Source: an uncultured Candidatus Poseidoniales archaeon
GTDB lineage: Archaea; Thermoplasmatota; Poseidoniia; Poseidoniales; Thalassarchaeaceae
Reading direction: 5' to 3'
Assembly (NCBI GenBank): GCA_964645485.1
Contig: CAZXZO010000020.1
Span: 1-40,097 of the forward strand
DNA length: 40,097 nucleotides
Shown in pieces: positions 1,958 to 25,380 of this stretch. The notes under the pieces were generated by a model. That model saw only the letters and a list, made by a program, of their open reading frames with translations, ran no database searches and had not been told where the DNA came from. The position numbers and the translations under genes are program-made. Position 1 is the first letter of the stretch; the number at the start of each line of letters is the position of its first letter.

Positions 1958-1980
1958 GGTTTGACCAAATGTGCGTCGAG

Positions 1981-1987
1981 TATTATA
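1981..1987. promoter_or_regulatory. Candidate bidirectional TATA box for the divergent MoaD/SAMP and ABC-ATPase genes
   Basis: TATTATA (TATAATA on the minus strand) lies 24-25 nt from both ATG 1957 (-) and ATG 2012 (+). This spacing fits leaderless archaeal transcripts. Confidence 0.5.
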
Positions 1988-2011
1988 GGTGTGCAACCCG
2001 CCCGATACAAC

Positions 2012-2725: not shown

Positions 2726-2731
2726 CTGGAG

Positions 2732-7486: not shown

Positions 7487-7560
7487 TACAAAACTTATGC
7501 ACCAAAATCAATACGATTGTGCGTTTACAGAAGAATAACCTAACAAAGTCCCGCGCATAG

Positions 7561-7604
7561 TATAAATATGAATTGAACAGGTGGGACAATCCCTTAGTGG
7601 GAGG
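7561..7604 (+). promoter_or_regulatory. TATA box and Shine-Dalgarno sequence of the 1065-aa surface protein gene
   Basis: TATAAATA at 7561-7568; GGGAGG at 7599-7604, 8 nt before ATG 7613. Confidence 0.6.
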
Positions 7605-7612
7605 ACTGTGAC

Positions 7613-10600
7613 ATGAAGAGAGCAACAAGTTTGGTTTTAGCGCTGCTGATGTTAATGAGCGTCGTAGCAAGCCTAAACCCAATAGAATTGAATGAAAGTG
7701 AACCGGTGGAAGACACCAACGCCAGAGCTGATTATGAGGTCTGGTTGATGGGTGCGAATTCACCGCGAGAATCAACGACCGATATGACCGGTACGGTAAG
7801 GAATTCCGTAGATGCCGGTGAAGCGATATTGTTTGATATCGTGGTCAAGAACGATGGTAATAACGACATATCAGAACTGACAGTAACTGTAACTGTTGAT
7901 GATGGTGTCGAAGCAACTCCATTGTTTATTGACGCTGAAGACGCAGCAGTTTGTGATGACACAATTTCTTGTGGAATTCAAACATTTGCATCTGGCGATT
8001 ATTTGGCTAACGGCCATTATATTGTTCGTGATTCCACAGGTGGAAACCTAGTTTGGACACCAACTGTGCCAGGAATGTACACTGTTCACATTGAAATTGA
8101 TACAGGTGACCAAGATACTGATCTTAACAACAACATTCTAGATTATGATGTTAACGTAATTGATTGGTACGATATCTCAACAGAACTTGCATGGGATGCT
8201 GGCGATGACCCAATGACTGGAGCCGGCCCGCATGACTTCACCATGACCGCATTTGTCAATGGCAGTGCACAATGGGACCCAAGAGATGTTCAGATGGAGG
8301 TAACCATGGGTGGATTATTCACTGCATTCCAAGATGATGGAACAAACACCATGGCAGTATCAATGTTTGATGCTGATGGAGATGGCTCGTTTGACGACTG
8401 TCCTGAAGGACCAGGTGCTAGTTCATGTACATGGACTGTAACTTTCGGTGACCTTTATGGAGCAGGTCAAGCTAATGACATTGAAGTGTATAGTAACCTT
8501 TCAATGGATCCACCAACACATCAGAATGCAAGCGATATTGGCGAGACCCGCTCGGTTCCTGCATTCCAAACAGCATACACCTTTGCAGGTACAATTCAAG
8601 GAGATACAGCAAACGCAAATGGCGTGGGGACATTCACAGTCCAATCGGCTCTAACTCAGTACACTATGTACGAACTAGTCTCAACTGATTACGGCACAGC
8701 GCCTGGCGCAAACGCATCGAATAACGTAGTCAATGAAATGTTAGAAACAACATCTACGTTAGATGATAGAAACGGAAACAATGATGCGTTGTTAACTGCA
8801 ACCTTTGCTTCCTATCACGATGTACAAGTAGTCAATATCGAAGCAGGCAACCCTCGTCAAGAGAGTGGCCGTTTGGATGCAGGAATGACTCGAGTCTTTG
8901 CAACTATTGCTCACAGTGGTAGTGACCGAACAATCAACTATGATTGGGCAGTTACATTCAACGTGAAGGATTCCAATGGTGACGATATCATTGGTTCACC
9001 TTTCGTTGCAACAGAGTGTGACAATCCAGATGACCCTGCTACTTCCTCACCACACGAGTACTTGGGAGAATTCCACCCAGCTACTCTAGAAGCAACCGCT
9101 TGTGCTGAGATTATGATTGACCCAGGTATGCTTTCGGTTAGTGCAACTATTGATTTGCTTGATACAACATTAACTGACACAGACTCTGCAAATGATTGTG
9201 GTACAGGAAACAATCCTGTTTGTAAGGATGACATGAACGCAGCGAATGATATGCGCACAGGTCACTTCGAAGTTCTAAATTCAGGCCCATCTGCATACTT
9301 GACAATGGATGAAATTGAGGGTGACATCATTAGTGGCACACAAATTACATTCTCTGCACGTGCGGAGCACCTGAGTCAACCTGACTTAGATCAAGACGGA
9401 AGCCCGGACCCATTCGGATACGTATGGTCTATGTCTGGCTCTGAAATGGACCCACAATTGGAGGCATGTCTTGGACAACCTGATTGTGTAATTGACATCA
9501 ACCTGATGTGGCTAGGATCTCCAACAATGATTGTTACAGTAACAGATCACTGGGGAGCTGATGCATCGGCTCAACTCACATTCAATGTGTGGAACAATTA
9601 TTCACACGTTGATTCTGGCGATTGCTGGGATGCAGAGTACGATATCCTGTATGCTGGTAACACACAATACACTGCACAATTCTCAGACGCAGATGATGCA
9701 ACTGGACAGGAACTCAGTGGAAGCCCAGGTTGGGATTCAGTTTGTACATTCAATATGGACGTAAGTGGAATACTTGCTCCTGAAGATGTAAACAGCGAAG
9801 ACCTAGTTGTGACAGTAGACGCTGATCCATCAGTTGGCCATTCCCTTTGGTATGAAGGCGGTACAGGATGGGTTGAGATGACAGGTACAACTCAAGCACA
9901 AGTAGATGCAGACACAATTAGCCTATCATGGGGTAATGATGGTACACTACCGTCACGTTCTTCATCTCGATATGCGGTATTTGCGTCAGCAACTATCGGT
10001 CAACCACCACAGATTGGTATTGACTCGTTAACTGCAACTCTTGGAGCGGCTGGAGTAATTGACCTTTCATGGGCGATTAACAACTCGCAACTCACCGGAG
10101 CAAACGATTACGGTGTACTGTACGTCAATGATGATGGAGCAGCGCTTGATGGTACACGCAGTACCTTTGACCTAACAACAACAACTCACACAATCGCTGG
10201 AACACACGGTACAACATACGAGTTCCTCGTACGCGTAGAGAACGGAGAAGTTGGAACTGATGGTAGCGCCCTATACGGGACACCTGTAGATTCAGGAAGT
10301 GCAACTGCAGACGGTCAAGTTGACCCAACAGCAGGAGCAGATGACCTAGAGGCTGCAAGTTCTGGTGAATCAAGCCTCCACTTCACATGGAGTGCTGCAG
10401 ATGCATCTGATGTAGACCACTGGATGATTTGCTGGTCACCATCGCAACACACAGCACTTGAAGTTACAAGCCTAATCAGTGCAGGTAACTGCCACTCAAC
10501 AACTGACTCAAGCACTGATGTTACAGTGGACAGGCATTCAGGTTCAGGTGTCTTCTACTACTCAGTGAATGCAATGGACTCAGTTGGAAATATGGAGACA

Positions 10601-10810
10601 GCAGACTCTAGCGCAGGTCTTCGATTTACTGATGACAGTGGACCAGGCGTGAATATTGACGACACCATTGGTGTTGAAGGTGGAGACGGAGAAATCCCAA
10701 CCCAAGCTTGGATTGCAATCGGCATACTTGTCCTAGTGGCAGTGATTGCTGGTGCTTTCATCCTAACCCGCGGTGGCGGCGAAGGCGATTCCGACGAATT
10801 CGACTACTGA
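7613..10810 (+). CDS. Membrane-anchored cell-surface protein (CARDB/Ig-, PKD- and FN3-like domains), 1065 aa
   Basis: Sec signal peptide MKRATSLVLALLMLMSVVAS and a CARDB-like start (FDIVVKNDG...DTDLNNN). Dx[DN]xDG Ca-binding loops (DADGDG, DLDQDG) and two FN3-like C-terminal modules. TM anchor WIAIGILVLVAVIAGAFIL, then an acidic tail. Very D/T/G/A-rich. Confidence 0.85.
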   Translation: MKRATSLVLALLMLMSVVASLNPIELNESEPVEDTNARADYEVWLMGANSPRESTTDMTGTVRNSVDAGEAILFDIVVKNDGNNDISELTVTVTVDDGVEATPLFIDAEDAAVCDDTISCGIQTFASGDYLANGHYIVRDSTGGNLVWTPTVPGMYTVHIEIDTGDQDTDLNNNILDYDVNVIDWYDISTELAWDAGDDPMTGAGPHDFTMTAFVNGSAQWDPRDVQMEVTMGGLFTAFQDDGTNTMAVSMFDADGDGSFDDCPEGPGASSCTWTVTFGDLYGAGQANDIEVYSNLSMDPPTHQNASDIGETRSVPAFQTAYTFAGTIQGDTANANGVGTFTVQSALTQYTMYELVSTDYGTAPGANASNNVVNEMLETTSTLDDRNGNNDALLTATFASYHDVQVVNIEAGNPRQESGRLDAGMTRVFATIAHSGSDRTINYDWAVTFNVKDSNGDDIIGSPFVATECDNPDDPATSSPHEYLGEFHPATLEATACAEIMIDPGMLSVSATIDLLDTTLTDTDSANDCGTGNNPVCKDDMNAANDMRTGHFEVLNSGPSAYLTMDEIEGDIISGTQITFSARAEHLSQPDLDQDGSPDPFGYVWSMSGSEMDPQLEACLGQPDCVIDINLMWLGSPTMIVTVTDHWGADASAQLTFNVWNNYSHVDSGDCWDAEYDILYAGNTQYTAQFSDADDATGQELSGSPGWDSVCTFNMDVSGILAPEDVNSEDLVVTVDADPSVGHSLWYEGGTGWVEMTGTTQAQVDADTISLSWGNDGTLPSRSSSRYAVFASATIGQPPQIGIDSLTATLGAAGVIDLSWAINNSQLTGANDYGVLYVNDDGAALDGTRSTFDLTTTTHTIAGTHGTTYEFLVRVENGEVGTDGSALYGTPVDSGSATADGQVDPTAGADDLEAASSGESSLHFTWSAADASDVDHWMICWSPSQHTALEVTSLISAGNCHSTTDSSTDVTVDRHSGSGVFYYSVNAMDSVGNMETADSSAGLRFTDDSGPGVNIDDTIGVEGGDGEIPTQAWIAIGILVLVAVIAGAFILTRGGGEGDSDEFDY

Positions 10811-11285: not shown

Positions 11286-14200
11286 ATGGTGACAAATAAA
11301 AATAAAGTGACCTTTGGGGGCAGTTGGCTTTTGCTAACGCTCCTGATGATTGGAATGAGTTGGAGCGCTGCGGTTTCGCCGGTAACGGAGAATTTGCAGA
11401 CTTCTGAGAACGATGGGGCAGAGTCAATTGATGACCTGCTGACTCTACCGGATGAAGCAATTAATCCGGCAGATAATGATGAATTTGGATATGACGCAGG
11501 AGCTGAGTTAATCGGTTCCCGTACGGAAACCGCCAAAACCTTCCTGAAGGATGATGGTGATTTCGAAGTTATTGTCTCTCCAGTGCCGGTCCATTACATG
11601 GATGATGGTGCCTGGGAAGAGATTGACTTGACAATCGAATCTAATGAAGGGGGATGGAGTGTAACACAGAACACATACGAAACCTACTTCGGAAACGATG
11701 CTCGTCATGGTGTCCAAATGGTAGTAGATGGGCAAACCATTCGCTACGGTATTATGCCACAAGTTGTGGTTCTAGATGGTATGACACTATCTCCAGAACC
11801 TTACATGGGTATGCCGGCAAGTGAGCCTATCGATGTTGGTGCAAATGTGATTAGATATCCTATGCTAACTGGCATCTCGCTTGACTACAAGGTGACTTCA
11901 ACACAGTTGAAGCAGAACCTTGTCATTCGAGAAGCACCAAATCTACTTGACCACCAGAAGGATTCAGGGTACTTCGGTATTGCAGAAACAATGTATCTGC
12001 CTACCGGTTTTGCTCTCTTCCTAGGGGAGTCGCCTATTGCTGATGGAGAATTGGTTAAGACCAACCAATCTCTAAGTATCCGCAATTTGGAGACAGGTGA
12101 GTTATTGGTATCCATTCCGCAACCTCTCGTTGAAAGTATTGAGCCTTCAGAAGAAGGACCACACATCGGCGAGTACGTTATTCGGGTTAATGGAGAAGAG
12201 ATTAGTCTGACAACAGTTGTTGAGAACACATGGCTAATGGACAGCGATAACCGCTCGTTCCCAATTGCTATCGATCCAACAATGGACAAGGGTGCACAGC
12301 GTGCTGGATATGCATACTACTACCGCATCACTCGATGGGGTTGGTACACATCCACTTACGAATATGCATTCTCTAGCAGTTCTTTGTTGTACACTTGCAG
12401 AGGTTCTGGCTCATGGTCAAACACTTGCTCTTCGTCTAGCTACTCATGGTACTACCGATATGCATGGTACCGCTTTGACTTTGGTAACGCGTTGCCAACT
12501 GGTGCAACTGTTAACAGCGTAGATTTCAAATCTAACGTTGGGAGGTATCAGAGTGGGGCACGGAATTTCGAAGTTGCTGTACTGAAGTCTGGTTCGAGTC
12601 AATCAAGCAATATGATTGATCCAAGCAGCTATCTGTATAGTAGTGGTAGATATTTGAACCGCTATATCAGAAACAGCGCTGCATCGTCTTCGTCAACTTC
12701 CTTGAGTGACCCAGGTTACTATTGGAATGGTGGAAACGTACGGTCCATTTCAATGAACAGTAATGGAGTTAGTGACGTGCAAGACGCAGTTGATGGTTCT
12801 GGAGCAGGTTCCAGCGGTCACATCCTTGGACTAGGTCTAAGGAATACCGCGAACGCACCGTTCTGGTATTGGTGTAGCACAGGATACTACAGTTACTACG
12901 GCTGCACATCCACGTCAGATTATCCACATCTGCATTTGGATTACAGTGGTGGTTCTGATACAGCACCTCCCGAAGACGATTTCGTTGCTTACACTGATCT
13001 TATCACACACCGCCCAGAGCAGAGAACATTCTGGCTGGGTCTACGTGATACAACAGGTGTAGACACCACGACAAGTGGTGGACCGTCTCTAAGTTACAGT
13101 GTCGATAATGGTACATGGACAAATGTTCGTGCTACCACTCTAGGTACATGTACTGCTGGTTCATGGTGTAATTTCCGAGCTGTAATTCCTGCAGTTCAGG
13201 AAGGCGAATATGTAGAATATTTCTGGGCATTCCAAGATTTGGTTGGCACAGTTGCTGGTACAACCGGTAACCCCAATTTCAAGACTTTGCCCGTGGGTGG
13301 AACTGGTTCCCCAAGCAGTGTAACTGCGCCAAGTTCCCCGTACAACTACTTCGTACAACCTGATGAACAAGCAGATGCTTACAACAGTGATGGAACTCCT
13401 AACAACAAGTGGCAACTGAAAATTGACCAACTAACAAATTACAGATACTACTCTGTTTACCGGTACTTCGATGAGCAAATCACATACTACGAAGATACTG
13501 GAGAATACATTTGGGAGTATGATACTTCCAACTGTGGAACAGGTAGTTATCAGTGTTTCAACACTGGCGCAGCATACCAAATGAGATACAGCCCAACAAT
13601 TAGCTCGTACTCATATTCAAATTGTGCATCGTCAGCAACTTGTGAAGTGACAGAGCCTAGTGGATTGTCATTAGGTGGCCAACACGGCCCTGGAATGTCC
13701 ACAATTTGGTGGTACAATTCCGCTGCTGGAGCATTCACTGTTGTTGGATTGGATGATGAAACTGGAATTGACCAACCTGTATCAGGTGCGTCAGTAGGTA
13801 CAAATGGCGGTGGTCGTAATTGCGATGACTGTTACTCAGCTGTACCAATCCCTGGTGACATCACCATGAAATTCGGTTCATTGAGTGTTAACGCAAGTTA
13901 CTCCTCAAGCAGTAGCACAAGGAATTGGTTCTGTGTAAACAGCAATAACCACCCACTGTACTTCTTGAGCAGCAGCAGTAGCAACCCTTACTGCCTATAC
14001 TCATACAGTACTTACCGCTATGACCGACAATTCAACGGTTGGATGGCTCCTGGTTACGATGGTCGATGGTCAAGTAACACCGACATCACCCAGAAGGTTA
14101 GCACTGTTAGGCCGATGCCTGACATCTATCCGCCTGTGTTAGATTATACCGGTTTGATGGATACCCACAGTGAAGATGATCGAACTGTGACAGTAGGTAT

Positions 14201-17200
14201 TACAGATGCTGGAGATCCTCCCACTGGCCTGAACACTTCTTCAGGCACAGATGCTAATGGTGTACTAGAAGGACCACACATGGTTTACAGAGTCTACAAT
14301 GATACTAGCCAAACATGGGGTAACTGGATTACTCGTGCAATGGCACAAGAATCGGGCAAAACTCGAGCACAGTGTGAACTTTCAGTATGTGACTGGTCAG
14401 CAACTCTGCCTGGTACAGACCGCGAAAATATTGTTGAGTACAGTATCCGAGCAAAGGATAACAATGGAAACTGGAACAATACTACCGCTTCAAGTTATCA
14501 GATAGGAACGCCAACAAAGGTATTCACCATTGAATGGCATGACATGAATTGTGGATTTGGTTCCCAATACACATGTTCGTATCAAGTAAAGATGTACGAT
14601 GTAACTAATGAAATAGAATTCCATTATGATACAAGTTCAAATGCGTACTATGATTACGAGAATATCGGATATCAAAAGGGTGGTTCAACAGCAATTGGTG
14701 CAACTCTCAGAGAGAGAGGTACTGGATATCAAGCAGGTGCGAATCCATTCGATTACAACTACCGAATTTCAACAGATGGAAACGCTCATGCAAACGAGCG
14801 AATGACTGCTGGAATGACTGAATTGTACAACTACGATGAAGTCTTTACTGGTACATCAAATGGACGCCCGTACACATACTACTGTACAAGATACTGGTCT
14901 AGTTACCGAAATCAGTGTGCAGATGTTATTGACATCCCTGCAGGATTTGACATTGACTACTTTGGAACCACATACAGTGGTAACAACAGTCACAAGATGC
15001 ATGTAATCCGCCACGGTGCGGCTGCATTCAGCACGTCAACATCTACAACACCAATGCAGATGTCGTACTACGGTTGGGGTGGCTATTGGCCAACTTTCCC
15101 AAGCAGTGCTTCGTACATTAACAACGCACAACTTGCACCATACTTTGGTTACTATGGCGCTTACTACTGCTACAACAGTGGAAACGCAGACTGTAGTATC
15201 CGTACAAAGACCATCCCGTTCGATGGCGCTGGTATGGATGTCTATGCTGATATCACCCAAGACACAATTTGGGACGCAGAAATGAGTCCAATTCGTATTG
15301 TGCCAAGCGGTGATTACCTACGCGTAACAGCAGACCTAGTGATTGATGCAGGTGTTGAAGTTCAATTCGCAGCCGGTAAAGGATTAGATATGGCTGGGAC
15401 ATGTTCTCGCTTGACAACTAATGGAAATGCAACTCACCCAGTTACAATTACCAACCTTGGTAACTCTGCTGGTAAGGGAATTGCATTCACAAGCGGTTGT
15501 ACAGACACAGATGACAGGCATATGTTCAACAACACTGACTTCAGCAACTTAGATGTTGCAATCAGTGCTGGTAGCCGGCATGGTAGTGCACCACATCACA
15601 ACGGAAATGTAGGTAACTTTACCTTTGACACAGTCACATTTACCGATGTAGATACAGCAATCAAGCACGGTTCAGGAACAGGTACTGGTTTTGATCTCTC
15701 TGGAGTATCAATAACCAATGCAACAGATTCCTGTATTGACTTGCCTGATGATGCTGTATTATCATGGATTGAAGGTTCTGCAACGAACTGTAATATGGGT
15801 AGTTCATCTACTGAAGGTGCTCTAAAGACTGGTGACGGAAGCGTCATTTATCTGGAGAATCTAACAATTACAGATGCGGCACACAATGGTATCATTGGTG
15901 ACTCGACCTCGATGCATGCTAGCAATGTAAGCATGTCAACAAGCGGGCTATCAAGCACACAAGTTGGAGGAACAGGTCTAGGCCACACTTCAACTGCAGC
16001 ATCTGGTACAAGCTTGTATGCTAACAATGTTGATGCAGCAGGATATGCAAATGCTTTGGTATCTTATGCTACAGATAGCATGTCATTAACTGATATTACT
16101 GGTGGTTCAATTTCGTTGGCTCCAGCAGGTACCGCAGGTACCGTGCTTGGTGACTCGGGTTGGTCTGCAAGTGGAATTACCAGTACTGGTAATATGCTGA
16201 TGTCAAGGACGACTCCAAGTTCAATGGATAATGTCGACTTAGACGGTTATCTACGAATGGATGGAACTGCAGCAAGCGGTGACCTAATGACAATCACAGG
16301 TCTAGCTGCTGACGGTCTTACAATCGCTGGATGTGGTTGGAATGTTCGAGCAAATGACGCTGACCTTGGTGATTCAACCAACGGTGTATGGGCAACCGCT
16401 TCGTGTACTTCAAGCAGTGCTTCAAGCACTTTGACTGTAGCAGGCGGGACCATGGACGGTTCTTCCTCTAACGGAAATATCGTTTATGCTCGTAATGCAC
16501 AAGTCACAATTGCAGATGTTGCAATCACTGGTCAAACATCAACTGGTGCGAATGTAGCGCAAGCAAGTACTAATGGTGATGTAAGATTAATCGGTGTCTC
16601 ATGGAGAGGTAACGATTGTGCTGATGCAAATGGCTGGACAGGAATGTCTGACTGTTGGGTTGATGTTTCATCATCCTCAGGCGCAATATATGTCGGAGGA
16701 ACTGCTCAAGTCGCAGCATACCGTGTAATGAACTTCATACCAGTATTTGTTGCAGACCATGCAGTCTCGACAACTACAGTAAGCACATCGGGTACTTGCC
16801 CAGGTGCGGCTTGTGTTGTCACTGATGTCACATCAGTCGGTACTTCTTACACAGATAGTACTGGAAATGCAACTGTTTGGTTACTCCAAGATAAGTTAGA
16901 TAAAAGCAGCGGATCAACTGCTGTATCTACATCTTACACAGACCACCGTATTGCCATTGCTGGCGGTGCAGGTCAAAATGAGACTACACCAGCAGATGAT
17001 TGGTACACATCAACATGTCAGATTAACGGCATGGATTGTTCAATGCCTCTAAGTCCAGGTGACCAAATCTACATGAAATTGGAAGCATTCCCACAAGATT
17101 GGAATGGTGCTACAAAGGATTGTACATGGTTGGGTACAAACACATCTGTATCCAATGGTTACCTACTATACACAATGCAAATAATCACTCTATCAACTGA

Positions 17201-20200
17201 CTTAGTTCTAGATGGATGCAAGTTGCATTTGAATGGAACGAAGATGATGATTAACCGAACTGCAAACAATAATCCAACAATCACTATCCAGAACGGAGGC
17301 GAATTACTGCTCTCCGAAGGTGGTGGCGAAATTGGAAACATGAAGGCTGTTACAAGTTCATATGGTTGGGAAATGGATATCTTAGCCGGTGGTAAATTCG
17401 TTGTAGACAATGGAAACATCCGGGACATGCATCAAAACTCTAACACAGGTGGAATGATGAATGTCGGTGAAGGAACGCTTGAACTGAAGAATGGCGCCAT
17501 AGTTTATGGAAGCCAAACAACATCTTCAGATATGGCTACCATCAAGGTTGATGGAGGAACTCTGTTAGTCAACGATGCCTCAGTTTACAATGCTGGTCAG
17601 ACCGGTGTTGGTCTTTGGATTGAAGATTCAGGCTCCAGCAGTATTCAGAACATCGCTGTTAGCGGTGCAGATACTGGTGTAGTGATTAAGAATGCAGCTC
17701 CAGCAATTGATGGATTCACCCTCAACGACAACACTGTCGGTGTAGAAATTGATGGTGGAATGACTCTACCAAGCATCTACCGGTCAACTCTGCTATCAGG
17801 TCAACAACGTGGTTGGGAAACTTATGAAATTGACTTGTCTGGATTAGCAAACAACTTCAATTACATTCAGTTTGGTTTCAACAATGTCTACGAAGGTGGA
17901 AACGTTCACCCAAGATACAACTACTACTCAAGTCGTTACTTCGCTGTATACGACCGTATGCGTATCGGACTAAATGATGGAATTGACAACGATGCAAATG
18001 GTGTCGGAGATGAAATCGAGAATTTCACTCTGAACTCAGCAGGTAAGGCAATGACTGGATACTATACATCCGGTGACACTTCAAACCTTGGTGACAGAAA
18101 TAATCCGGACCACCCTTCAAGAAACGATGGATGGGCTCGAAATGATTGTAATTACTATGGTTACCAATATAGCCCAGGTGGATCCTACCAGTATGGTTAC
18201 TACTACTACATGAACAACTATGGTCCATACACACAAGGTAACACCAACTACTACGGTGCAAACGCTTACCCAAGCGACTTCGGGTTCACTCTCGATATTG
18301 CTGATGGTTTGACAGGTAGCCAGAATTACTACCCATACAATTACTGGGGCTACTACTGGCCAAGTTGGTACTTCGGTAGCGGATACCAGGGTGGCGTTTT
18401 CACACCACCAGAGGGATTCAACGGTCTATGGGGATACTACAACGTATGTCTCTCATACGCATACCGATACCAGACACCAACACCTAACGGATGGAGAATG
18501 TCATGGCCAATTGTTGATGTCAGCAGTGCAAGTGTCACTGAGGTATCAGCATACATCGATATTCTACACAACTACGCAGATTACTACGGTGACCGATATG
18601 ACTTCGTATTCCGTGGTGGAAGCGACATCAATGATTTGATGAATTCGAATTGGGGTAGGGAATTTGGTACTGCAACATTAGATAACGGTGTTATCAATGG
18701 TGCTGATACTGGTATCCATATTGCTGGCAACTATGCTGCAGGCGGAATTAGTGCTGTAACAGTCAACGACCCTGTAGATGAAGGTGTATTGGTTGATGGT
18801 ACTTCAGCGGTTGAAATGGATGGCTTAACTGTCAACAACGGTCGCTACGGTATTCGTACGACCAGCGCTGCAGGCGGTTCATTGGAAGCAACTAACTCTG
18901 CTCTAGACAACCAATCACAAGATGGAATTGTCTTAGGCGCTGCGTTCAAGTTGGACCTAAGTGGTGCAATCACAAACGCTTCAGGTGCTGCAATCAATGT
19001 ACTATCAACAAGCTCCCAGGATTGGAGTTTCGATAGCCTGTCACTGACAAGCAACAACGTTGCTTTGAACCACGATGGTTCAGGTGAACTTACTTGTACA
19101 GATTGTACAACAGGTAGTAACTCCAATGATGTGACAACTTCAGGTTTGGTTACTTGGGTTGAAGGAGATATTGATCTTGCAACGGTGAGCGCGTCCGGTT
19201 CTGGACTCTTACAGAGAGCCAGATTAGCTGATATAACGATAACAGCAGATGGTAGCGGTGTAGCCGGAACTGGTGTCAGCATGATTGACGCTCTGAGTAA
19301 GAGAGTGGCATCTGGTGAGACTGATAGTTCAGGTACAGTAAGTGACATGGTGTTCCACACCAATTATGTTGACGCGTCGGGATTAACCGTCGTCAACCTT
19401 GCTGGATATAAGATAATGAGTGTTGGTAAAGTGTCTTACAGCACAACAGTTGCTGACTTTAGATACGCTATCAAGACCGTAAGTTTAGTTGATGGCCCAG
19501 GTAATAGCGATACAGTTGCTCTGACGGATAACTTCGATGCACGTGTATGTTATAGTTGGTCTTATTCAAATTACAACGTACTACAATCTTGTTCGGGTAC
19601 CCATTATCTTGGAACTACAAGTTCAAGAACCAAGAGTGATGGAAATGGAGGTTCAATTACTGAATACGGATATTACGGGGCAATGCCTAGCAATATGGAG
19701 AACAAAGCGATCCTGATGGACTCGCCTTGGTCATACACTGGTACAACTGGTGCATCATTCAATGGTTCAACAGTTATTTTCAGTGGCTTCTACAATAACC
19801 AGAACTCCAACCTGTATGTCCGAAGCTATCAGGGTGACATCTATACTGATGACACTACAATGGCAGCAATAAGTCCGAAGGATACTGCTTACTTTAGCCT
19901 AGGATATTACGGTGGTTACAACTATGGTAATTTCTTCGTAAACGATTCCACACTGATTAACATCGGTACGATTGGAAGTGGGGCAGGATACTACAACCGT
20001 AATCCGGAGATGCATGTTACTAACAGCGTGTTAGTGTCATACTCGCAGTTGACGGATGTTCAATCTGTATATCAGCAAGAAATCTGTATCTCGTCTGCTG
20101 GAAGTGATTACGGCGACTGGGTTGTTGATAACAACACCATGTACGACTGTACTGTTGGAGTCATGATCTACTCTAACTACTACGCAACCAGTCCTTGGTA

Positions 20201-23200
20201 TGGTGGAACAGGTACAGATGGTGCTCGTTGGAGTAATAACACCATGTATGATAGCACTTATCTGCCACTCTGGGTTTATCTGAACTCAGATGCTGATGAC
20301 CTACTAATTGACAATAACACCATAACTGGCTCAAAGAGAGTAGGTTACGGTATATACGCACAAGACGACCAGTTGAACAGTGTAGAGATTCGTGGTAACA
20401 CAATCGAGACTGCTGACGAACCGATCTACATGCGAAATGCAAAGAATTGGGACATCAACAATAACACAATCCAAGGTGACGGAGACTCTGCTCACTCTGG
20501 AATTTATGTTAGAAACGGTGAAGGTTCAATCTCAGATAACACACTAACTGACTCAGATGGTGGAATCAATGTATTCGGAGTTCGCTCTGGATATGATGTC
20601 GACCTCTCAAGAAACACAATTAGTGCATCTGGTGGACGAGTTTCACCAACTGCAACTGGTATCTATGTAGAGAACTGTGGACTTGCAGAAGTTACAATGG
20701 CAGGAAATCTTGTCAGCACAACATCTAACGCTCTAGTGTCAGATGGTTGTGATGTTTCTGATGTTGGCAGCACATTCGCCAGCGCAGGTGGCTCAGCATC
20801 ACAGATTCACTCTGTGAACATTGAGGCATCTCAGTTCAATCCAACAATTAAGAACATCAGCACAGGTGATACTGTACGATGGGTATTGACTCAATACAAC
20901 AGTGACCCTAACAACTTCCAGCACTCAACAACCAGTAACACATCTGGACTTTGGGACAGTTCACCGTTGAACTTGGGTGGCACATTTGCCCACACGTTCA
21001 CAGCACCTGGTACTTACGAGTACCATTGCAGTGTCCACAGTTTCATGAGTGGTGTAATTAATGTAGCAAACAGCTCAGGTGCGAGTAACCTACAGACATA
21101 CGGAATTGACATCCTTGATGGCAGCGAAGACATCTCCCTTGATGGTACATCCATCGGTGGATTCAGTCTAGCATACCGACAAGATGGTGGTACACTGAAT
21201 GTTGAAGGTGGATCAGTTGTCACTGGTGACAACGGTTTCGACTTGACCAATGTTGACGTAACAGTTGACGGTCTAAGCGTATCTGCAGACAGTGGTTTCG
21301 GTGTTGGTTTGGATGTTTCATCTGATACAGGCCGTCACACATTGGACGTTGCAAACATGGATACATCTGGTGGCATTGGTATGCTGGCAGATGGTCACAC
21401 TTCATTCCGTTGGAATGGTGGTGACTCCACAGCAACTACAACCCTGCAAACCCTTGGTGGAGCATCAGGTACTATTGAGAACATGACTGTCACAACAGAT
21501 GGTCCATGGAGATCTAACCACGGTGCAAGTTTCACCCAGATTAATGCTGGTGCGTACTCAACCATCACAAGCGTTGGAAATACACTCAACCAGAGTATGT
21601 TGACAATCGGAACCAGTGCGGTCGTTCACGAGGGTAACCTCCTAGACCTAACTGTTACACACATGGGTGGGGCAGCAAGCAATGTTGGATTGATGATTAA
21701 GTCAACCGACCTTGGTCGCTCAGAATACGTCAGCCCATCATGGCGCTCTAACATCATCTCCGTAGGAGAAGGTGCAGGCGGCGCAGCAGCGGTTACTGAC
21801 TGGTTCGTAAGCCATCCACTTGGAATTGCTAACATTGCTGACGATGCAATGCCTGGTCCAGTTGCAGTCAATCCTGACCCAACTAGCCAAGCAATGGGAT
21901 ACATGACTTGGGATAACTCAAATCTGTACATCATGCTGACCGGAGTGACCTTCTTGGTCACAGACGGTATGTGGTATCTTGATACCCAGCAAGGTGGTTC
22001 AAATGTTGGTGACAACTGGTATGTCAGTCACAATCTGCCATTCGAGGCAGACTACATGCTATGGGCAGAAGACCGTGCAAACTGGGGTATCCGCAAGGTT
22101 ATGCCTGGTGGCAACTGGGTCGATGTTACAGCAGCATGTACTGGTATGCAAGCAGCACCTGGATTTGGTTACCCAGGAGTCACTCCAACATGGAGTGGTA
22201 TCTCTGAGTTCGCAATCCCATGGGACTGTATTGGAAGCCCAACAGGTCGAATCAAGACTCTAGCAATCATCCAGAATGAAAACTCTGGTCACGTGCTTGG
22301 TGTTTACCCACCACAGCTATGGAACCAGACTAGCGGTGCTGCTCAGACATTCGGTGACTTCGGTACACTGCAATTGACTGGTGGCGATTTGGCTGATGGT
22401 ACTCTAGATGACTTCCTGCTAATCCACCGAACTTTCACAGCAACTGGTGCAACAACACCGCGCGCATACGATGTGACAGTTAAGGTAAGAGATGCAGATA
22501 ACATCTATTGGGACTGGGGTTCACATAGTTCGCTTGCAATGGATCAGAATCAGGATATCACAATAGATATCTTACGTGCAAAGCCAGTCATTGCTGACTT
22601 GGTTGATGTATCGTATGATGAAGATTCGGGTTCACATGTTGTGTCGCTGACAGATAAGGCTGCAGATTATCAGCAGGCTTCAAGCACGCTGTCATGGACT
22701 GTAACAAATGATGCTACAAATCCGAGCAATGCTACATCACCGTTCGCATATGATTTGACCGGTCAAACACTGACCATCTCTCCAGATGCGAATGAGTTCG
22801 GCAACCAGAGACTATACCTGGTTGTTACTGATGGACATGGATTGTACAGTAGTCAGTCAATGCTTGTAGGTGTAGAGAACGTCAATGACGCTCCAGTCAT
22901 CAACAACCCACGACACGCAACTGGCCTACCAGTATTCACTGAAGGAATTGATGTGAATGGAAACGCAGTTTACAACTCATACGACGAACCTCAAAGGGCA
23001 CATCCAGTGACCGGTGAGGAGAGAGAATGGGATCTGCTAACTAAATTCCTTGGTGGCTCAGCTGGTGAAGGATTTGTTCAGGATTTGGGAATCGGTGACG
23101 GTCTAGCAAATGAGCAAGACAGGAACGCTGACAACAACAGTGAGCAAGCACCGCAGACCTACACTTGGACAGCAGTTACTGACCCAGTAGATTGTGTAGC

Positions 23201-25208
23201 ATTCGATGTAAGCATAAACGGAGGAACCACTCTAGAAATTGACCTCAACGAGGCAAATGAAGATGGTGGAACCTGTGACATTGTTCTAGACCTATCAGAC
23301 GGTGCATCAGTCAATGATGCTGCAACAACAGTGAGTGTACCATTTACAGTACAGCCTACCAACGATAATACTCGTATTATCCCATGGGATGTTAACAATG
23401 GTTCAGTCATCACTACAAAGTATATCGATACAAGTGGTGCAATGGTAGACGGTAACATCAGACAAACTGGTCAAGCAGCCAACAATGATGGCGATGCTTG
23501 GTGGTGGTCTGTAGATGAGGACACAGAGGATCCAGACTTACTAACGATTGATCTCAGCAATATGATGAGTGACAACGATAACACTAACCAACAACTATAC
23601 TGGACAATCGATGACTCACAGTACTACCTTGACAAGTGTCAATACACAAACTACTTCTCAGTAGCAATTGACAATGATGAGCATACAATGACTATTGATT
23701 TGATTCCTGATGCAACCACAGACGCAACAAGTGCTGAGTGGGATATGCTACAGGATGCAGATGGCGATGGTGTACCAGATGATGGTATCCACCAGAAGGC
23801 ACCAAGATCCGGTGACTACTGTCTGATGAATCTGATTCTGTGGGACCCTGTTTCACAGAGTGAAGTTCCACAGTATGACTACGTTCAGTCAGACGCATGT
23901 ATTGCACTTGACCAAGATGGCGATGACACAACTAACTGTTATGCACAGACATACAGTACTCACGAGTTGAGTATTAATGTCCACAACATAGTGGAATTGC
24001 GACCAGACTACAACTTCAATGAAGTACGTCTATCCCCTGACCCATTTGACTTCAAGGGAATTGACGGTGTTCTGCGTGAGACTATGGTACCTGTGTCAGT
24101 TGAACTACAACACACAGATGGTGACCAACCAATCAACTCGGATGGCACATACAAGTACCTATACGATCTGCAAGTGTCATTCTATGTGGTTGACTCCGAT
24201 TGCGCAGGCTGTGATGGGACATACCAGAGCAGCGTACGACTTGGAAGCAATGGTCCAGGAAACGGTGCACTAGCACTACCTGACTATGGTTCATCTGTTG
24301 AAGTTGGAAACTACGTCCGATTGAACAAGACATCTGAGGATGTTCGTGTATTCGTTGATGTAATGACAGTGAATCCATTCACTGGCCAATACACTGACAA
24401 CTCGAAGTACGAGAGACCAGCTCTAGAAGAGAAGAACTGGGCAGACAACAACATGACTGCTTCACAAACCAACAGCGAATTACCACTCATTGTGGAGACC
24501 AAGGCAGCACAGAGTGTTGCTTCGTTCGCTCCAACATTGATGGCAGTCGGCCTAGTCGGCGTATTCGTTGGTGCTCTACTTAGCCGCTCCCGAGCGGAAG
24601 AGGACGAGGAAGAGTTCGAGGAGGAATCAATGCTTGACGATGACCGTGCAGTTAGCCCGGTTATCGCAACCATCCTTCTTGTGGCAATTACAGTCGTCTT
24701 GGCTGGTGTAATATACGTGTGGGCAGGCTCACTCGCAGACACCAGCACTAAGGGTGTACCAAGGTTGACCTTCACAGCAGAAGCAATTACCGTACAAGAG
24801 ATCAGTGGACTAGAACAGGATGAATGGCACTGGAGAGTTACCACATCATATGCAGCGACAGACCTTGCAACTCAAGCAGTGACTGTCTCAGTATTGTGGA
24901 CTAACGCTAGTGGACAGCAAGTGTACAAGACAGCACTCGCACCTGGTGGCGGAGATGCAGAGAATGTATACGGATTCGCCCCACGTAACAGCGAGAATAT
25001 GGTAACCTTCTGGGATGACATATCTCACTGTGAGCGCGGTGGTGCACCTTGTATCACAACCTTCGGTCCTGGTGACAGAATCTTCATCAGAATGACAGAC
25101 AATGATGGTCTTATTGACTCAGCATTGATTGACATTCAGTACGAATTGCCTGGTGGCGCTGCGTACATGTTGAAGCAGTACACTGCATCACCAACCAGCA
25201 TACGCTGA
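11286..25208 (+). CDS. Giant multidomain cell-surface protein/adhesin with a C-terminal archaeal type IV pilin domain, 4640 aa
   Basis: A single uninterrupted ORF. In order it encodes: a signal peptide; a WapA/DNRLRE-like module; Ig-like repeats; long right-handed beta-helix segments; a cupredoxin; a DOMON/CBM9-like domain; cadherin/Ig-like repeats (ENVNDAPVI, QPTNDNTRI); a TM anchor; an acidic loop; a class III signal peptide; and a pilin domain. Confidence 0.9.
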   Translation: MVTNKNKVTFGGSWLLLTLLMIGMSWSAAVSPVTENLQTSENDGAESIDDLLTLPDEAINPADNDEFGYDAGAELIGSRTETAKTFLKDDGDFEVIVSPVPVHYMDDGAWEEIDLTIESNEGGWSVTQNTYETYFGNDARHGVQMVVDGQTIRYGIMPQVVVLDGMTLSPEPYMGMPASEPIDVGANVIRYPMLTGISLDYKVTSTQLKQNLVIREAPNLLDHQKDSGYFGIAETMYLPTGFALFLGESPIADGELVKTNQSLSIRNLETGELLVSIPQPLVESIEPSEEGPHIGEYVIRVNGEEISLTTVVENTWLMDSDNRSFPIAIDPTMDKGAQRAGYAYYYRITRWGWYTSTYEYAFSSSSLLYTCRGSGSWSNTCSSSSYSWYYRYAWYRFDFGNALPTGATVNSVDFKSNVGRYQSGARNFEVAVLKSGSSQSSNMIDPSSYLYSSGRYLNRYIRNSAASSSSTSLSDPGYYWNGGNVRSISMNSNGVSDVQDAVDGSGAGSSGHILGLGLRNTANAPFWYWCSTGYYSYYGCTSTSDYPHLHLDYSGGSDTAPPEDDFVAYTDLITHRPEQRTFWLGLRDTTGVDTTTSGGPSLSYSVDNGTWTNVRATTLGTCTAGSWCNFRAVIPAVQEGEYVEYFWAFQDLVGTVAGTTGNPNFKTLPVGGTGSPSSVTAPSSPYNYFVQPDEQADAYNSDGTPNNKWQLKIDQLTNYRYYSVYRYFDEQITYYEDTGEYIWEYDTSNCGTGSYQCFNTGAAYQMRYSPTISSYSYSNCASSATCEVTEPSGLSLGGQHGPGMSTIWWYNSAAGAFTVVGLDDETGIDQPVSGASVGTNGGGRNCDDCYSAVPIPGDITMKFGSLSVNASYSSSSSTRNWFCVNSNNHPLYFLSSSSSNPYCLYSYSTYRYDRQFNGWMAPGYDGRWSSNTDITQKVSTVRPMPDIYPPVLDYTGLMDTHSEDDRTVTVGITDAGDPPTGLNTSSGTDANGVLEGPHMVYRVYNDTSQTWGNWITRAMAQESGKTRAQCELSVCDWSATLPGTDRENIVEYSIRAKDNNGNWNNTTASSYQIGTPTKVFTIEWHDMNCGFGSQYTCSYQVKMYDVTNEIEFHYDTSSNAYYDYENIGYQKGGSTAIGATLRERGTGYQAGANPFDYNYRISTDGNAHANERMTAGMTELYNYDEVFTGTSNGRPYTYYCTRYWSSYRNQCADVIDIPAGFDIDYFGTTYSGNNSHKMHVIRHGAAAFSTSTSTTPMQMSYYGWGGYWPTFPSSASYINNAQLAPYFGYYGAYYCYNSGNADCSIRTKTIPFDGAGMDVYADITQDTIWDAEMSPIRIVPSGDYLRVTADLVIDAGVEVQFAAGKGLDMAGTCSRLTTNGNATHPVTITNLGNSAGKGIAFTSGCTDTDDRHMFNNTDFSNLDVAISAGSRHGSAPHHNGNVGNFTFDTVTFTDVDTAIKHGSGTGTGFDLSGVSITNATDSCIDLPDDAVLSWIEGSATNCNMGSSSTEGALKTGDGSVIYLENLTITDAAHNGIIGDSTSMHASNVSMSTSGLSSTQVGGTGLGHTSTAASGTSLYANNVDAAGYANALVSYATDSMSLTDITGGSISLAPAGTAGTVLGDSGWSASGITSTGNMLMSRTTPSSMDNVDLDGYLRMDGTAASGDLMTITGLAADGLTIAGCGWNVRANDADLGDSTNGVWATASCTSSSASSTLTVAGGTMDGSSSNGNIVYARNAQVTIADVAITGQTSTGANVAQASTNGDVRLIGVSWRGNDCADANGWTGMSDCWVDVSSSSGAIYVGGTAQVAAYRVMNFIPVFVADHAVSTTTVSTSGTCPGAACVVTDVTSVGTSYTDSTGNATVWLLQDKLDKSSGSTAVSTSYTDHRIAIAGGAGQNETTPADDWYTSTCQINGMDCSMPLSPGDQIYMKLEAFPQDWNGATKDCTWLGTNTSVSNGYLLYTMQIITLSTDLVLDGCKLHLNGTKMMINRTANNNPTITIQNGGELLLSEGGGEIGNMKAVTSSYGWEMDILAGGKFVVDNGNIRDMHQNSNTGGMMNVGEGTLELKNGAIVYGSQTTSSDMATIKVDGGTLLVNDASVYNAGQTGVGLWIEDSGSSSIQNIAVSGADTGVVIKNAAPAIDGFTLNDNTVGVEIDGGMTLPSIYRSTLLSGQQRGWETYEIDLSGLANNFNYIQFGFNNVYEGGNVHPRYNYYSSRYFAVYDRMRIGLNDGIDNDANGVGDEIENFTLNSAGKAMTGYYTSGDTSNLGDRNNPDHPSRNDGWARNDCNYYGYQYSPGGSYQYGYYYYMNNYGPYTQGNTNYYGANAYPSDFGFTLDIADGLTGSQNYYPYNYWGYYWPSWYFGSGYQGGVFTPPEGFNGLWGYYNVCLSYAYRYQTPTPNGWRMSWPIVDVSSASVTEVSAYIDILHNYADYYGDRYDFVFRGGSDINDLMNSNWGREFGTATLDNGVINGADTGIHIAGNYAAGGISAVTVNDPVDEGVLVDGTSAVEMDGLTVNNGRYGIRTTSAAGGSLEATNSALDNQSQDGIVLGAAFKLDLSGAITNASGAAINVLSTSSQDWSFDSLSLTSNNVALNHDGSGELTCTDCTTGSNSNDVTTSGLVTWVEGDIDLATVSASGSGLLQRARLADITITADGSGVAGTGVSMIDALSKRVASGETDSSGTVSDMVFHTNYVDASGLTVVNLAGYKIMSVGKVSYSTTVADFRYAIKTVSLVDGPGNSDTVALTDNFDARVCYSWSYSNYNVLQSCSGTHYLGTTSSRTKSDGNGGSITEYGYYGAMPSNMENKAILMDSPWSYTGTTGASFNGSTVIFSGFYNNQNSNLYVRSYQGDIYTDDTTMAAISPKDTAYFSLGYYGGYNYGNFFVNDSTLINIGTIGSGAGYYNRNPEMHVTNSVLVSYSQLTDVQSVYQQEICISSAGSDYGDWVVDNNTMYDCTVGVMIYSNYYATSPWYGGTGTDGARWSNNTMYDSTYLPLWVYLNSDADDLLIDNNTITGSKRVGYGIYAQDDQLNSVEIRGNTIETADEPIYMRNAKNWDINNNTIQGDGDSAHSGIYVRNGEGSISDNTLTDSDGGINVFGVRSGYDVDLSRNTISASGGRVSPTATGIYVENCGLAEVTMAGNLVSTTSNALVSDGCDVSDVGSTFASAGGSASQIHSVNIEASQFNPTIKNISTGDTVRWVLTQYNSDPNNFQHSTTSNTSGLWDSSPLNLGGTFAHTFTAPGTYEYHCSVHSFMSGVINVANSSGASNLQTYGIDILDGSEDISLDGTSIGGFSLAYRQDGGTLNVEGGSVVTGDNGFDLTNVDVTVDGLSVSADSGFGVGLDVSSDTGRHTLDVANMDTSGGIGMLADGHTSFRWNGGDSTATTTLQTLGGASGTIENMTVTTDGPWRSNHGASFTQINAGAYSTITSVGNTLNQSMLTIGTSAVVHEGNLLDLTVTHMGGAASNVGLMIKSTDLGRSEYVSPSWRSNIISVGEGAGGAAAVTDWFVSHPLGIANIADDAMPGPVAVNPDPTSQAMGYMTWDNSNLYIMLTGVTFLVTDGMWYLDTQQGGSNVGDNWYVSHNLPFEADYMLWAEDRANWGIRKVMPGGNWVDVTAACTGMQAAPGFGYPGVTPTWSGISEFAIPWDCIGSPTGRIKTLAIIQNENSGHVLGVYPPQLWNQTSGAAQTFGDFGTLQLTGGDLADGTLDDFLLIHRTFTATGATTPRAYDVTVKVRDADNIYWDWGSHSSLAMDQNQDITIDILRAKPVIADLVDVSYDEDSGSHVVSLTDKAADYQQASSTLSWTVTNDATNPSNATSPFAYDLTGQTLTISPDANEFGNQRLYLVVTDGHGLYSSQSMLVGVENVNDAPVINNPRHATGLPVFTEGIDVNGNAVYNSYDEPQRAHPVTGEEREWDLLTKFLGGSAGEGFVQDLGIGDGLANEQDRNADNNSEQAPQTYTWTAVTDPVDCVAFDVSINGGTTLEIDLNEANEDGGTCDIVLDLSDGASVNDAATTVSVPFTVQPTNDNTRIIPWDVNNGSVITTKYIDTSGAMVDGNIRQTGQAANNDGDAWWWSVDEDTEDPDLLTIDLSNMMSDNDNTNQQLYWTIDDSQYYLDKCQYTNYFSVAIDNDEHTMTIDLIPDATTDATSAEWDMLQDADGDGVPDDGIHQKAPRSGDYCLMNLILWDPVSQSEVPQYDYVQSDACIALDQDGDDTTNCYAQTYSTHELSINVHNIVELRPDYNFNEVRLSPDPFDFKGIDGVLRETMVPVSVELQHTDGDQPINSDGTYKYLYDLQVSFYVVDSDCAGCDGTYQSSVRLGSNGPGNGALALPDYGSSVEVGNYVRLNKTSEDVRVFVDVMTVNPFTGQYTDNSKYERPALEEKNWADNNMTASQTNSELPLIVETKAAQSVASFAPTLMAVGLVGVFVGALLSRSRAEEDEEEFEEESMLDDDRAVSPVIATILLVAITVVLAGVIYVWAGSLADTSTKGVPRLTFTAEAITVQEISGLEQDEWHWRVTTSYAATDLATQAVTVSVLWTNASGQQVYKTALAPGGGDAENVYGFAPRNSENMVTFWDDISHCERGGAPCITTFGPGDRIFIRMTDNDGLIDSALIDIQYELPGGAAYMLKQYTASPTSIR
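20808..21065 (+). other. Cupredoxin (plastocyanin/amicyanin-like) domain within the giant protein
   Basis: HSVNIEASQFNP...ISTGDTVRWV...QHSTT...FTAPGTYEYHCSVHSFMSGVINV. Ligands are H3213, C3248, H3251 and M3254. Confidence 0.9.
24630..25208 (+). other. Archaeal type IV pilin/archaellin-like domain (class III signal peptide), in frame at the C-terminus of the giant ORF
   Basis: M-L-D-D-D-R-A|V-S-P-V-I-A-T-I-L-L-V-A-I-T-V-V-L-A-G-V-I-Y-V-W matches the archaeal pilin N-terminal consensus (K/R)(G/A)|(V/I)SP(V/I)(I/V)(G/A)x(I/V)LL(V/I)AITV. About 185 aa of mature domain follows. GAGGAGG at 24618-24624 precedes ATG 24630. Confidence 0.85.
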
Positions 25209-25223
25209 ACTGTGTAATACGAA

Positions 25224-25380
25224 GCGCCTTCGGGCGTTGAATGCAGGGATGCTTAGGGGCTCTTGCCCCTGAGCACCCGACCTTCCGAAATTGAGCGAAA
25301 GCTCGGTTTCGGTTAGGCTGATTTGGCCCCGCCTCAACTCGGCATCTGCTGAGGAAGGGCGGGGCTTTTTCTCATTTTTT
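25224..25380 (+). ncRNA. Candidate structured RNA element / 3' UTR of four GC-rich hairpins ending in a U-tract
   Basis: Four hairpins: GCGCC-TTCG-GGCGT (25224-25237); GGGATGCTTAGGGGC-TCTT-GCCCCTGAGCACCC (25246-25278); CCGAAATTGAGC-GAAA-GCTCGGTTTCGG (25285-25312); and GCCCCGCCT...GGGCGGGGC (25326-25365). These are followed by TTTTTCTCATTTTTTTT. Confidence 0.45.

Follow-up and report, generated by a model that had tools for sequence, protein, structure and literature searches.

What is a type IV pilin doing at the very end of a giant archaeal surface protein, and could the prepilin signal that precedes it be read there? The question is raised by one gene, P0001, in a stretch of DNA of 40,097 nucleotides, called here the window, from an uncultured Candidatus Poseidoniales archaeon (GenBank assembly GCA_964645485.1, contig CAZXZO010000020.1, positions 1 to 40,097 of the forward strand). 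P0001 is a precursor of a type IV pilin in which the signal occupies a place without precedent: the class III motif begins only at residue 4456 of 4640, after a Sec-exported ectodomain and a transmembrane (TM) helix. To our knowledge, the position of class III (prepilin) signal peptides is taken to be the N-terminus without exception. The Marine Group II (MG-II) archaea, to which this organism belongs, are uncultured heterotrophs that abound worldwide and rank with the most numerous archaea of ocean surface waters, and their attachment to particles and algae has been inferred mostly from “flagella” genes. The parts of the gene, all on the forward strand, are these (an arrow in motifs below marks the predicted cut):

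11286-25208, forward strand: giant open reading frame P0001, a single open frame, precursor of a surface protein and a pilin module.
11286-11372, forward strand: Sec-type signal peptide, about residues 1-29, read from the translation with no predictor score.
24522-24581, forward strand: TM1, stop-transfer anchor S4413-L4432, SFAPTLMAVGLVGVFVGALL, with the SFAP motif at its start, read from the translation.
24582-24650, forward strand: predicted cytoplasmic loop S4433-A4455 (23 residues), SRSRAEEDEEEFEEESMLDDDRA, from the translation and the alignment.
24648-24653, forward strand: predicted class III signal peptidase site between Ala4455 and Val4456, position 1 of the Pilin_N/TIGR02537 profile, a putative cleavage site.
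24651-25205, forward strand: mature pilin module V4456-R4640, 185 aa, beginning VSPVIATILLVAITVVLAGVIYVWA, from the profiles and the AF2 model.

The frame runs without a stop over 4,640 aa, and its stop codon occupies 25206-25208. An earlier note on this DNA, made from its letters, had claimed an adhesin fused to a prepilin with neither stop nor frameshift between them and a mature pilin V4456-R4640 of 185 aa, and both statements were borne out, the fusion by the translation and by contigs that cross the junction, the length by the translation. The start that it gave for the feature, 24508, precedes the helix, which begins at 24522, by a few codons, so that its description was accurate to within a few codons. 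The signal peptide has a Lys-rich n-region, a hydrophobic core and the motif SWSAA; the loop passes from a basic SRSR patch through an acidic run to MLDDDRA, which resembles a prepilin leader; the AF2 model predicts a helix in the TM1 region at residues 4415-4441; and the mature module consists of a hydrophobic N-terminal helix (about 4458-4489) followed by a beta-sandwich head. The predicted topology, outside, TM, cytoplasmic loop, TM and outside again, had been proposed before and is consistent with the sequence, given the Sec signal, the anchor with flanking Arg, the loop and the N-in/C-out pilin helix. The ectodomain thus comes first and the pilin last, which is the reverse of the order in modular pilins.

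The C-terminal part of P0001 is an archaeal type IV pilin module, and it has the pilin fold. Its motif is much too strong to be due to chance: the part scored 40.3 bits on Pfam Pilin_N PF07790 (cut-off 25.2, E 6e-10) and 49.5 bits on NCBIfam TIGR02537 (cut-off 20), and LDDDRAVSPVIATILLVAITVVLAGVI could be aligned (E 1.3e-5) to leader and helix of 8fj5, the pilus subunit of Haloferax volcanii, while the end of the loop and the helix also aligned with the solved filament-forming pilins 8gi2 (Natrinema) and 9myg. An AF2 model built on an alignment of 21 sequences gave a long helix followed by a beta-sandwich, with a predicted local distance difference test (pLDDT) of 85-90 in the pilin head. When this model was compared with the PDB by Foldseek, the best match was 8fj5, the H. 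volcanii type IV pilus (E 2.4e-4), followed by 8rey, 7ofq and 9eq7; the matches are archaeal pilins, a Cuniculiplasma filament and archaellins, at E from 2e-4 to 1e-3 and at TM-scores (template modelling scores) of only 0.35-0.56. The archaeal pilin fold of the C-terminal domain, on which the earlier note had staked its proposal, is therefore present according to both AF2 and Foldseek.

The genome itself offers the closest standard of comparison. A regular-expression scan of six frames found exactly four class III motifs in it, only the giant's one being internal, and the other three belong to standalone pilins of 165, 170 and 507 aa, which have nearly the same helix as the giant and match its conserved helix pattern. 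As in those pilins, a small residue at -1 (A4455) stands directly before the hydrophobic helix. The sites of the standalone pilins read …EQA↓V, …ETA↓V and …NEA↓V, and their leaders are likewise acidic next to the site and then end in Ala. The basic residue (K/R) that had been expected at -2 is not conserved in the giant's family, and it is absent from the genome's own standalone pilins as well.

We then have to ask whether the fusion is real. The host genome is metagenome-assembled and estimated to be 82% complete, and support for the junction comes from assembled contigs of other samples, an RNA library included. A contig of 17 kb, with a depth of 218 and taken from another sample, crosses the junction, and this contig and contigs from a third sample showed 0-1 differences and no indel over it; moreover, a marine metatranscriptome contig of 1,766 nt, about 94% identical and thus from a relative, runs through anchor, loop and pilin with no gap. 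The junction is hence crossed by contigs of two other samples and by an RNA-library contig, where the earlier note had wanted confirmation by reads. Neither is the fusion unique to this assembly, as had been feared there, but conserved across the Poseidoniales: among 60 relatives, the C-terminal 391 residues sit, on contigs of sufficient length, in frames of 4,500-5,500 aa that contain no stop, the uninterrupted frame is found in 53 of 61 relatives, one of the carriers being a single-contig genome, and every large frame is stop-free. The class-level genome sample gave the same stop-free pattern, with orthologous frames in three families of the order, and the full cassette of anchor, loop and prepilin occurs in at least 80 species-level genomes from both MG-II families. 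Among the large frames of the relatives and of the phylum-level carriers, no split form with separate adhesin and pilin genes was found, and the short matches of the representative-protein search resemble fragments from contig edges. The window and its close relatives belong to Candidatus Thalassarchaeaceae (MG-IIb), and the copies that are 45-50% identical come from Poseidonia/Poseidoniaceae (MG-IIa). About half of the Thalassarchaeaceae genera have neither the fusion nor any pilin, and the published distribution of the MG-II “flagella operon” mirrors this pattern (PMC6461757).

The fusion is real, neither an artefact nor something peculiar to this genome. An assembly or sequencing error, or a recent pseudo-fusion of this one genome, retains hardly any probability in our judgement, because independent contigs, the RNA-library one among them, cross the junction without an indel, because the same frame recurs in at least 80 species-level genomes, single-contig ones included, and because the pilin module is under purifying selection.

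This selection was measured around a junction whose anatomy is well conserved. The junction alignment holds 21 sequences, and the survey of codons and starts covers 34 loci across three families. The V-x-S-F-x-P columns in front of TM1 do not vary, nor does the G column; TM1 itself varies and is followed by Arg residues; and the loop, of 17-24 residues, is mostly acidic and variable except for the flanking Arg and the Ala at -1. At the predicted site, Ala-Val-Ser-Pro-Val-Ile is invariant in 21 of the 21 sequences, and 18 residues past the site are invariant or nearly so between families that are about 45-50% identical overall. The -2 position holds R, G, A, E, S, Q, M or T, so that at this place Ala at -1 alone is invariant. 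Within the window's genus, the ratio of nonsynonymous to synonymous divergence (dN/dS) was 0.075 in the mature pilin, 0.107 in the anchor and loop and 0.171 in the last 255 codons of the ectodomain, the mature pilin being the most constrained of the three partitions. Since it is held by purifying selection, the C-terminal module is functional and not a relic. As for its origin, the loop resembles the cytoplasmic tail of an adhesin joined to a pilin leader, as might be left by the loss of a stop codon between two genes; the neighbouring surface protein ends in an acidic tail similar to the giant's loop, and Met or Leu often stands seven residues before the site, both of which fit such an origin.

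The cassette is by no means confined to this family. An exhaustive search over 1.8 billion representative proteins returned 21 clusters of the giant family at E < 1e-30, and it also returned unrelated large proteins that end in the same stretch of anchor, loop and prepilin, such as one of 2,342 aa, whose neighbour (2,410 aa) is built in the same way, and another of 1,215 aa. Their loops are basic rather than acidic, and their anchors start with PSFAP, PAFVP or PGFDP, the build (S/A/G)F(A/V/D)P-TM-basic being shared. The phylum-level search placed the carriers outside the order in other Thermoplasmatota families, so that internal or C-terminal pilin motifs behind a TM helix, which the earlier note had advised looking for, occur both in MG-II and in other Thermoplasmatota. 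This spread to unrelated adhesins suggests a general coupling module and not the oddity of one lineage. One genome, G291, has at least nine genes of 1,498-2,424 aa that end in the cassette, several of them in tandem, and the phylum-level search located them (loci L181-L189) as follows:

G291 contig C26, positions 8002, 13042, 20524, 27909 and 35190: cassette-ending genes.
G291 contig C15, positions 3601 and 10945: cassette-ending genes.
G291 contig C2, position 27862: cassette-ending gene.
G291 contig C37, position 7906: cassette-ending gene.

In these paralogues the DNA identity is 0.52-0.79 upstream of the predicted site, about 0.9 from the site to the stop, and about 0.4 after it. The mature pilin, of 161 residues, shows dS 0.68, dN 0.009 and dN/dS 0.013 at a protein identity of 98.4%, as compared with dN/dS of 0.13 in the anchor and loop and 0.15 in the ectodomain. 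Recent gene conversion alone is no explanation for this identity because the synonymous divergence is as high as 0.68. Selection keeps the nine G291 precursors encoding the same mature pilin along its whole length. A constraint that starts at the predicted site, together with an identity shared by all copies, is what would be expected if the part behind the site were released into a common structure, and the pattern, as we read it from the sequences, argues for a discrete and shared mature product, since a membrane anchor would not need such constraint.

The pilin head also occurs on its own. In P0036 (707 aa), the beta-sandwich head of the cassette pilin, with no pilin helix, sits inside the ectodomain of a Sec-exported and C-terminally anchored protein, and the head is therefore a mobile module. 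Another protein, P0092 (208 aa), has two N-terminal TM helices followed by …ETPDDRA↓VSPVIGVILMVAITVVLA…, and it may have a further internal signal of this class, in its haloarchaeal form, or else its start may have been called wrongly.

A split precursor would need a peptidase and a pilus machinery, and the earlier note had advised checking for PibD, PilB and PilC; the genome does have a class III signal peptidase homologue and two ATPase/platform loci. The candidate peptidase, P0005 (G000:C27), is a divergent, polytopic protein of 333 residues of the FlaK/PibD type, encoded in a cluster (L045 6046-10949) together with the 170-aa pilin, two KaiC/ArlH-like ATPases, a lamin-tail-domain protein and a family-less protein of 194 aa. 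Sixteen P0005 orthologues, down to 28% identity, have invariant catalytic Asp motifs, namely D27 in LDxKxRRVxN and D172 in GGADxK, and the profile of this family matched FlaK 3s0x at E 1.7e-7, with GGADxK aligned to the GGGDGK of FlaK. On Arc_PepC_II (PF06847), the archaeal A24 C-terminal domain, P0005 scored 28.9 bits for a cut-off of 29.9 and the G021 orthologue 31.2, and all 16 family members matched it (best E 4e-11). As a single sequence, P0005 had no match among PDB sequences or in NCBIfam, and FlaK was reached by the family profile only. A homologue is present in single copy in 12 of the 12 genera that carry the fusion; one is present, too, in all five carriers outside the order, indeed in every carrier examined in the phylum-level search, and none was found in five genera without fusion and pilins; two further genera have divergent copies. 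Given that these genomes are kin, the co-occurrence is descriptive only. The T2SSE ATPase and T2SSF platform genes are found at two loci, on contigs C2 and C19. When the peptidase alignment was docked with the cassette alignment, the score was 0.60, and the best of three controls gave 0.00; the mark is reached by 58 of 80 solved complexes and by 2 of 110 mismatched pairs, the runs had a contact agreement of at least 78% and a partner pLDDT of at least 63, and this modelling weakly suggests that peptidase and cassette are a pair.

We propose that P0001 is a two-part precursor with an internal class III signal peptide, which would be split by a prepilin peptidase into an anchored giant and a pilin, and we see the chances of this as evenly balanced. 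In such a pathway, some 4,380 ectodomain residues would be exported by means of the Sec signal, SFAP-TM1 would stop the transfer and leave the 23-residue loop in the cytoplasm, and the pilin helix would re-insert N-in/C-out with the beta-sandwich head outside. The FlaK/PibD-type aspartyl peptidase P0005 would then cut after Ala4455 at the cytoplasmic face of the membrane, yielding a membrane-anchored giant with a short acidic tail and a free mature pilin of 185 residues, and the latter would enter the type IV filament pathway (loci C2 and C19), probably along with the separately encoded pilins that share its helix. We infer both cleavage and filament assembly, the former from evolutionary evidence and the weak docking. 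The fusion likely serves to couple the production or the placement of the adhesin to the pilus.

Several points weigh against this proposal and should be kept in mind. We know of no class III signal peptidase that cuts internally behind another TM helix. Peptidase_A24 (PF01478) matched nothing in the own genome, which is 82% complete; the best match in five relatives that are 94-98% complete reached 20.9 bits for a cut-off of 26.5, and although it was this sub-threshold match that led to the P0005 family, only three of the 16 family members matched the model, at E 0.03 or worse. The docking falls in the weak class, for scores of 0.60 or below were obtained by only seven of the 80 solved complexes plus both of the mismatched pairs that passed. 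The pilus genes do not adjoin the giant gene, and the loop is strongly acidic, unlike classical basic leaders, though the genome's own pilins are also acidic there. An output of one pilin per giant is a costly source if the pilin is a major subunit. Lastly, identity between paralogous cassette pilins is not a universal rule because in the pairs of giant paralogues of the MG-II genomes G034 and G050 the pilin modules have diverged.

The first point also counts among those in favour of a chain that stays uncut, in which TM1, the loop and the pilin helix would form a permanent two-pass hairpin anchor and the pilin-like module would either dock the giant at the platform or base of the pilus or be one more extracellular Ig-like domain: internal cleavage by a class III signal peptidase is undescribed in the literature searched, the topology is as predicted from the sequence in this case too, and TM1, with its own SFAP motif, travels together with the pilin module in unrelated proteins, which suggests that the two helices are a unit. 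An anchor, however, needs no invariant peptidase site and assembly helix while TM1 varies, nor does it need, in nine paralogues, a mature part of 161 residues held at dN/dS 0.013 from the site on. An uncut subunit, moreover, could not enter a filament, because the archaeal pili whose structures have been solved lack the leader and have their N-terminal helices packed in the core (PMC12448462). We hold a permanent hairpin to be rather unlikely. A quite different escape from the need for cleavage is offered by a feature of the junction itself:

24618-24632, forward strand: GAGGAGG resembling a Shine-Dalgarno (SD) sequence (24618-24624) and in-frame ATG 24630-24632 (Met4449), a possible internal start, read from the sequence.

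If translation were initiated mainly at Met4449, it would give the prepilin MLDDDRA↓VSP…, and the fusion would be the by-product of a lost stop or a secondary source of pilin. The junction is the sole place in the 13.9-kb frame with GGAGG, a spacing of 3-9 nt and an in-frame ATG, the SD-like GAGGAGG lying 5 nt upstream of Met4449; GGAGG precedes the starts of some window genes (7613, 35750); and ATG or TTG stands at the Met4449 codon in 26 of the 34 loci, across the three families. In the window's genus, the proportion of synonymous differences (pS) has a minimum at the junction (pS 0.061, rank 2 of 541 windows of the scan), with values of 0.05-0.10 from codon -50 to +15 around the site against about 0.3 overall (seven close relatives, last 585 codons). 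In contrast, a start-capable codon is absent in 8-9 of the 34 loci, including L022 of the same genus, and absent in the G291 family; the SD-like motif is confined to the window's genus, and its letters also plainly code for Glu-Glu; and 17 Poseidonia genomes showed no trough (pS 0.389 against 0.424 overall), so that a synonymous trough as a general feature of the junction was rejected, while local recombination could explain the one in the window's genus equally well. An incidental fusion should also regain stop codons, and there is none in any large frame. Internal initiation as the main source of the pilin is thus improbable to us, more so than the hairpin, and in any event it does not exclude cleavage of the full-length chain: in the window's genus it may add to the pilin output without replacing cleavage, and the 1:1 ratio could then break.

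How does such a precursor compare with the systems already described? The haloarchaeal Pilin_N/DUF1628 adhesion pilins (H. volcanii 8fj5, Natrinema PilA2 8gi2) belong to the same Pfam and NCBIfam family and share with the giant's module a near-identical leader end and helix, …DD(S/R)A↓VSPVI(G/A)…ILMVAITV…, and the same fold of an N-terminal helix and a beta-sandwich head, though the head domains cannot be aligned by sequence; they are 130-170 aa long with the signal at the extreme N-terminus, whereas the giant's signal lies about 4,450 residues in and behind another TM helix. Modular type IV pilins (Streptococcus sanguinis PilB, PMC8179133; archaeal SPIII proteins with adhesin domains, PMC13705601) also unite a pilin and adhesive domains in one chain. 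There the pilin is N-terminal and the C-terminal adhesin rides the filament after leader cleavage, while P0001 has the opposite order, and its cleavage would part the adhesin from the pilin. In the case of the PilY1/PilC tip adhesins (Kingella PilC1/2, PMC13711793; archaeal PilY-like arCOG03511, PMC13705601), a large adhesin is likewise functionally coupled to pilins; unlike in P0001, they are separate gene products, held non-covalently, with no TM anchor or shared precursor. Non-filament surface proteins with a prepilin-type signal and a dedicated assembly system are a further likeness, and they differ from the giant in that the signal is N-terminal, belongs to the functional protein and has no ectodomain upstream of it.

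In the literature searched, which does not extend to most subscription journals, neither a class III signal peptide in an internal or C-terminal position nor this MG-II protein was found described, and within that range the statement of the earlier note that the architecture is undescribed held up. The censuses of archaeal type IV filaments (PMC4858521, PMC13705601) make no mention of an internal or C-terminal class III signal, and the MG-II comparative paper (PMC6461757) and the Thermoplasmatales filament paper (PMC12448462) are equally silent on such a signal or protein. Automatic annotations already put Pilin_N at the C-terminus of such proteins or label their fragments “flagellin-like protein”. 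What is new here is the peptidase family, the cassette beyond the Poseidoniales, the step in constraint in the nine paralogues, the contig support and the test of the internal start. If the proposed splitting is true, an internal signal cut behind another TM helix would extend the known repertoire of prepilin peptidases, and “polyprotein” processing would join type IV filament biogenesis. The tie between the largest conserved MG-II surface protein and a pilin provides a concrete handle on MG-II attachment.

The SFAP motif at the start of TM1 recalls yet another class of processed surface proteins. The PGF-CTERM tails of archaeosortase A and the cassette anchor are built alike, with a short motif where a C-terminal TM helix meets the outside and basic residues behind the helix, and one cassette outside MG-II reads PGFDP. 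Canonical PGF-CTERM tails stand about 25 residues from the C-terminus; the cassette motif is SFAP, 228 residues away, and PGF_CTERM (TIGR04126) gave no match at E up to 10 on four cassette anchors. The SFAP anchor was accordingly rejected as a known sorting signal, having no match to PGF-CTERM, PEF-CTERM or other models. Archaeosortase A itself is encoded at G000:C7:31032-31952 on the reverse strand (87 bits on TIGR04125, cut-off 75) and is found in 19 of the 19 genera of the order sampled, including those without the fusion, and seven proteins of the genome, on C6, C10, C17, C22, C25, C32 and C38, end in canonical tails of PGF, TM helix and basic residues, with their motifs 25-46 residues from the C-terminus. 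Because cleavage by the peptidase would remove the pilin, the cassette anchor would become nearly terminal, and sequential processing is thus possible. The cassette might then be a portable signal for two proteases, in which the class III signal peptidase frees the pilin and archaeosortase A, or another enzyme that reads SFAP, removes the remaining sortase-like tail, a prospect that we regard as very improbable, below even the internal start. That tail would comprise the SFAP motif, the TM helix, the basic patch and a short acidic end, and the adhesin would be lipid-anchored or released, an outcome as doubtful as the scheme itself. If this were true, whole families of Thermoplasmatota adhesins (nine proteins in one genome) would, on deployment, supply a common filament with one identical subunit each.

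Some minor features of the locus complete the description, one of them within the ectodomain, of which Pfam recognises little else:

20817-21065, forward strand: cupredoxin/plastocyanin-like domain, residues about 3178-3260, Pfam PF00127.

This domain, of the plastocyanin/azurin type, sits in the middle of the ectodomain of the giant protein and scored 24.0 bits (cut-off 21.2, E 5.3e-5). An antisense open reading frame over the junction (24311-24844, reverse strand) was dismissed as a product of chance; it measures 108 to 186 codons in the closest relatives, and its product is of low complexity. Downstream, the RNA-library contigs X4 and X7, from two studies, both end at 25287, about 80 nt past the stop codon, within a hairpin-rich stretch (window 25224-25380) beyond which one DNA contig runs, and the shared end hints weakly at the 3' end of a transcript. 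Immediately before the giant gene, at window 1961-10810, lie genes for an ATP-binding cassette (ABC) ATPase, a MacB/FtsX-type permease of 1,584 aa with a very large extracytoplasmic insert, and an anchored surface protein of 1,065 aa with DUF11, fn3 and an acidic cytoplasmic tail.

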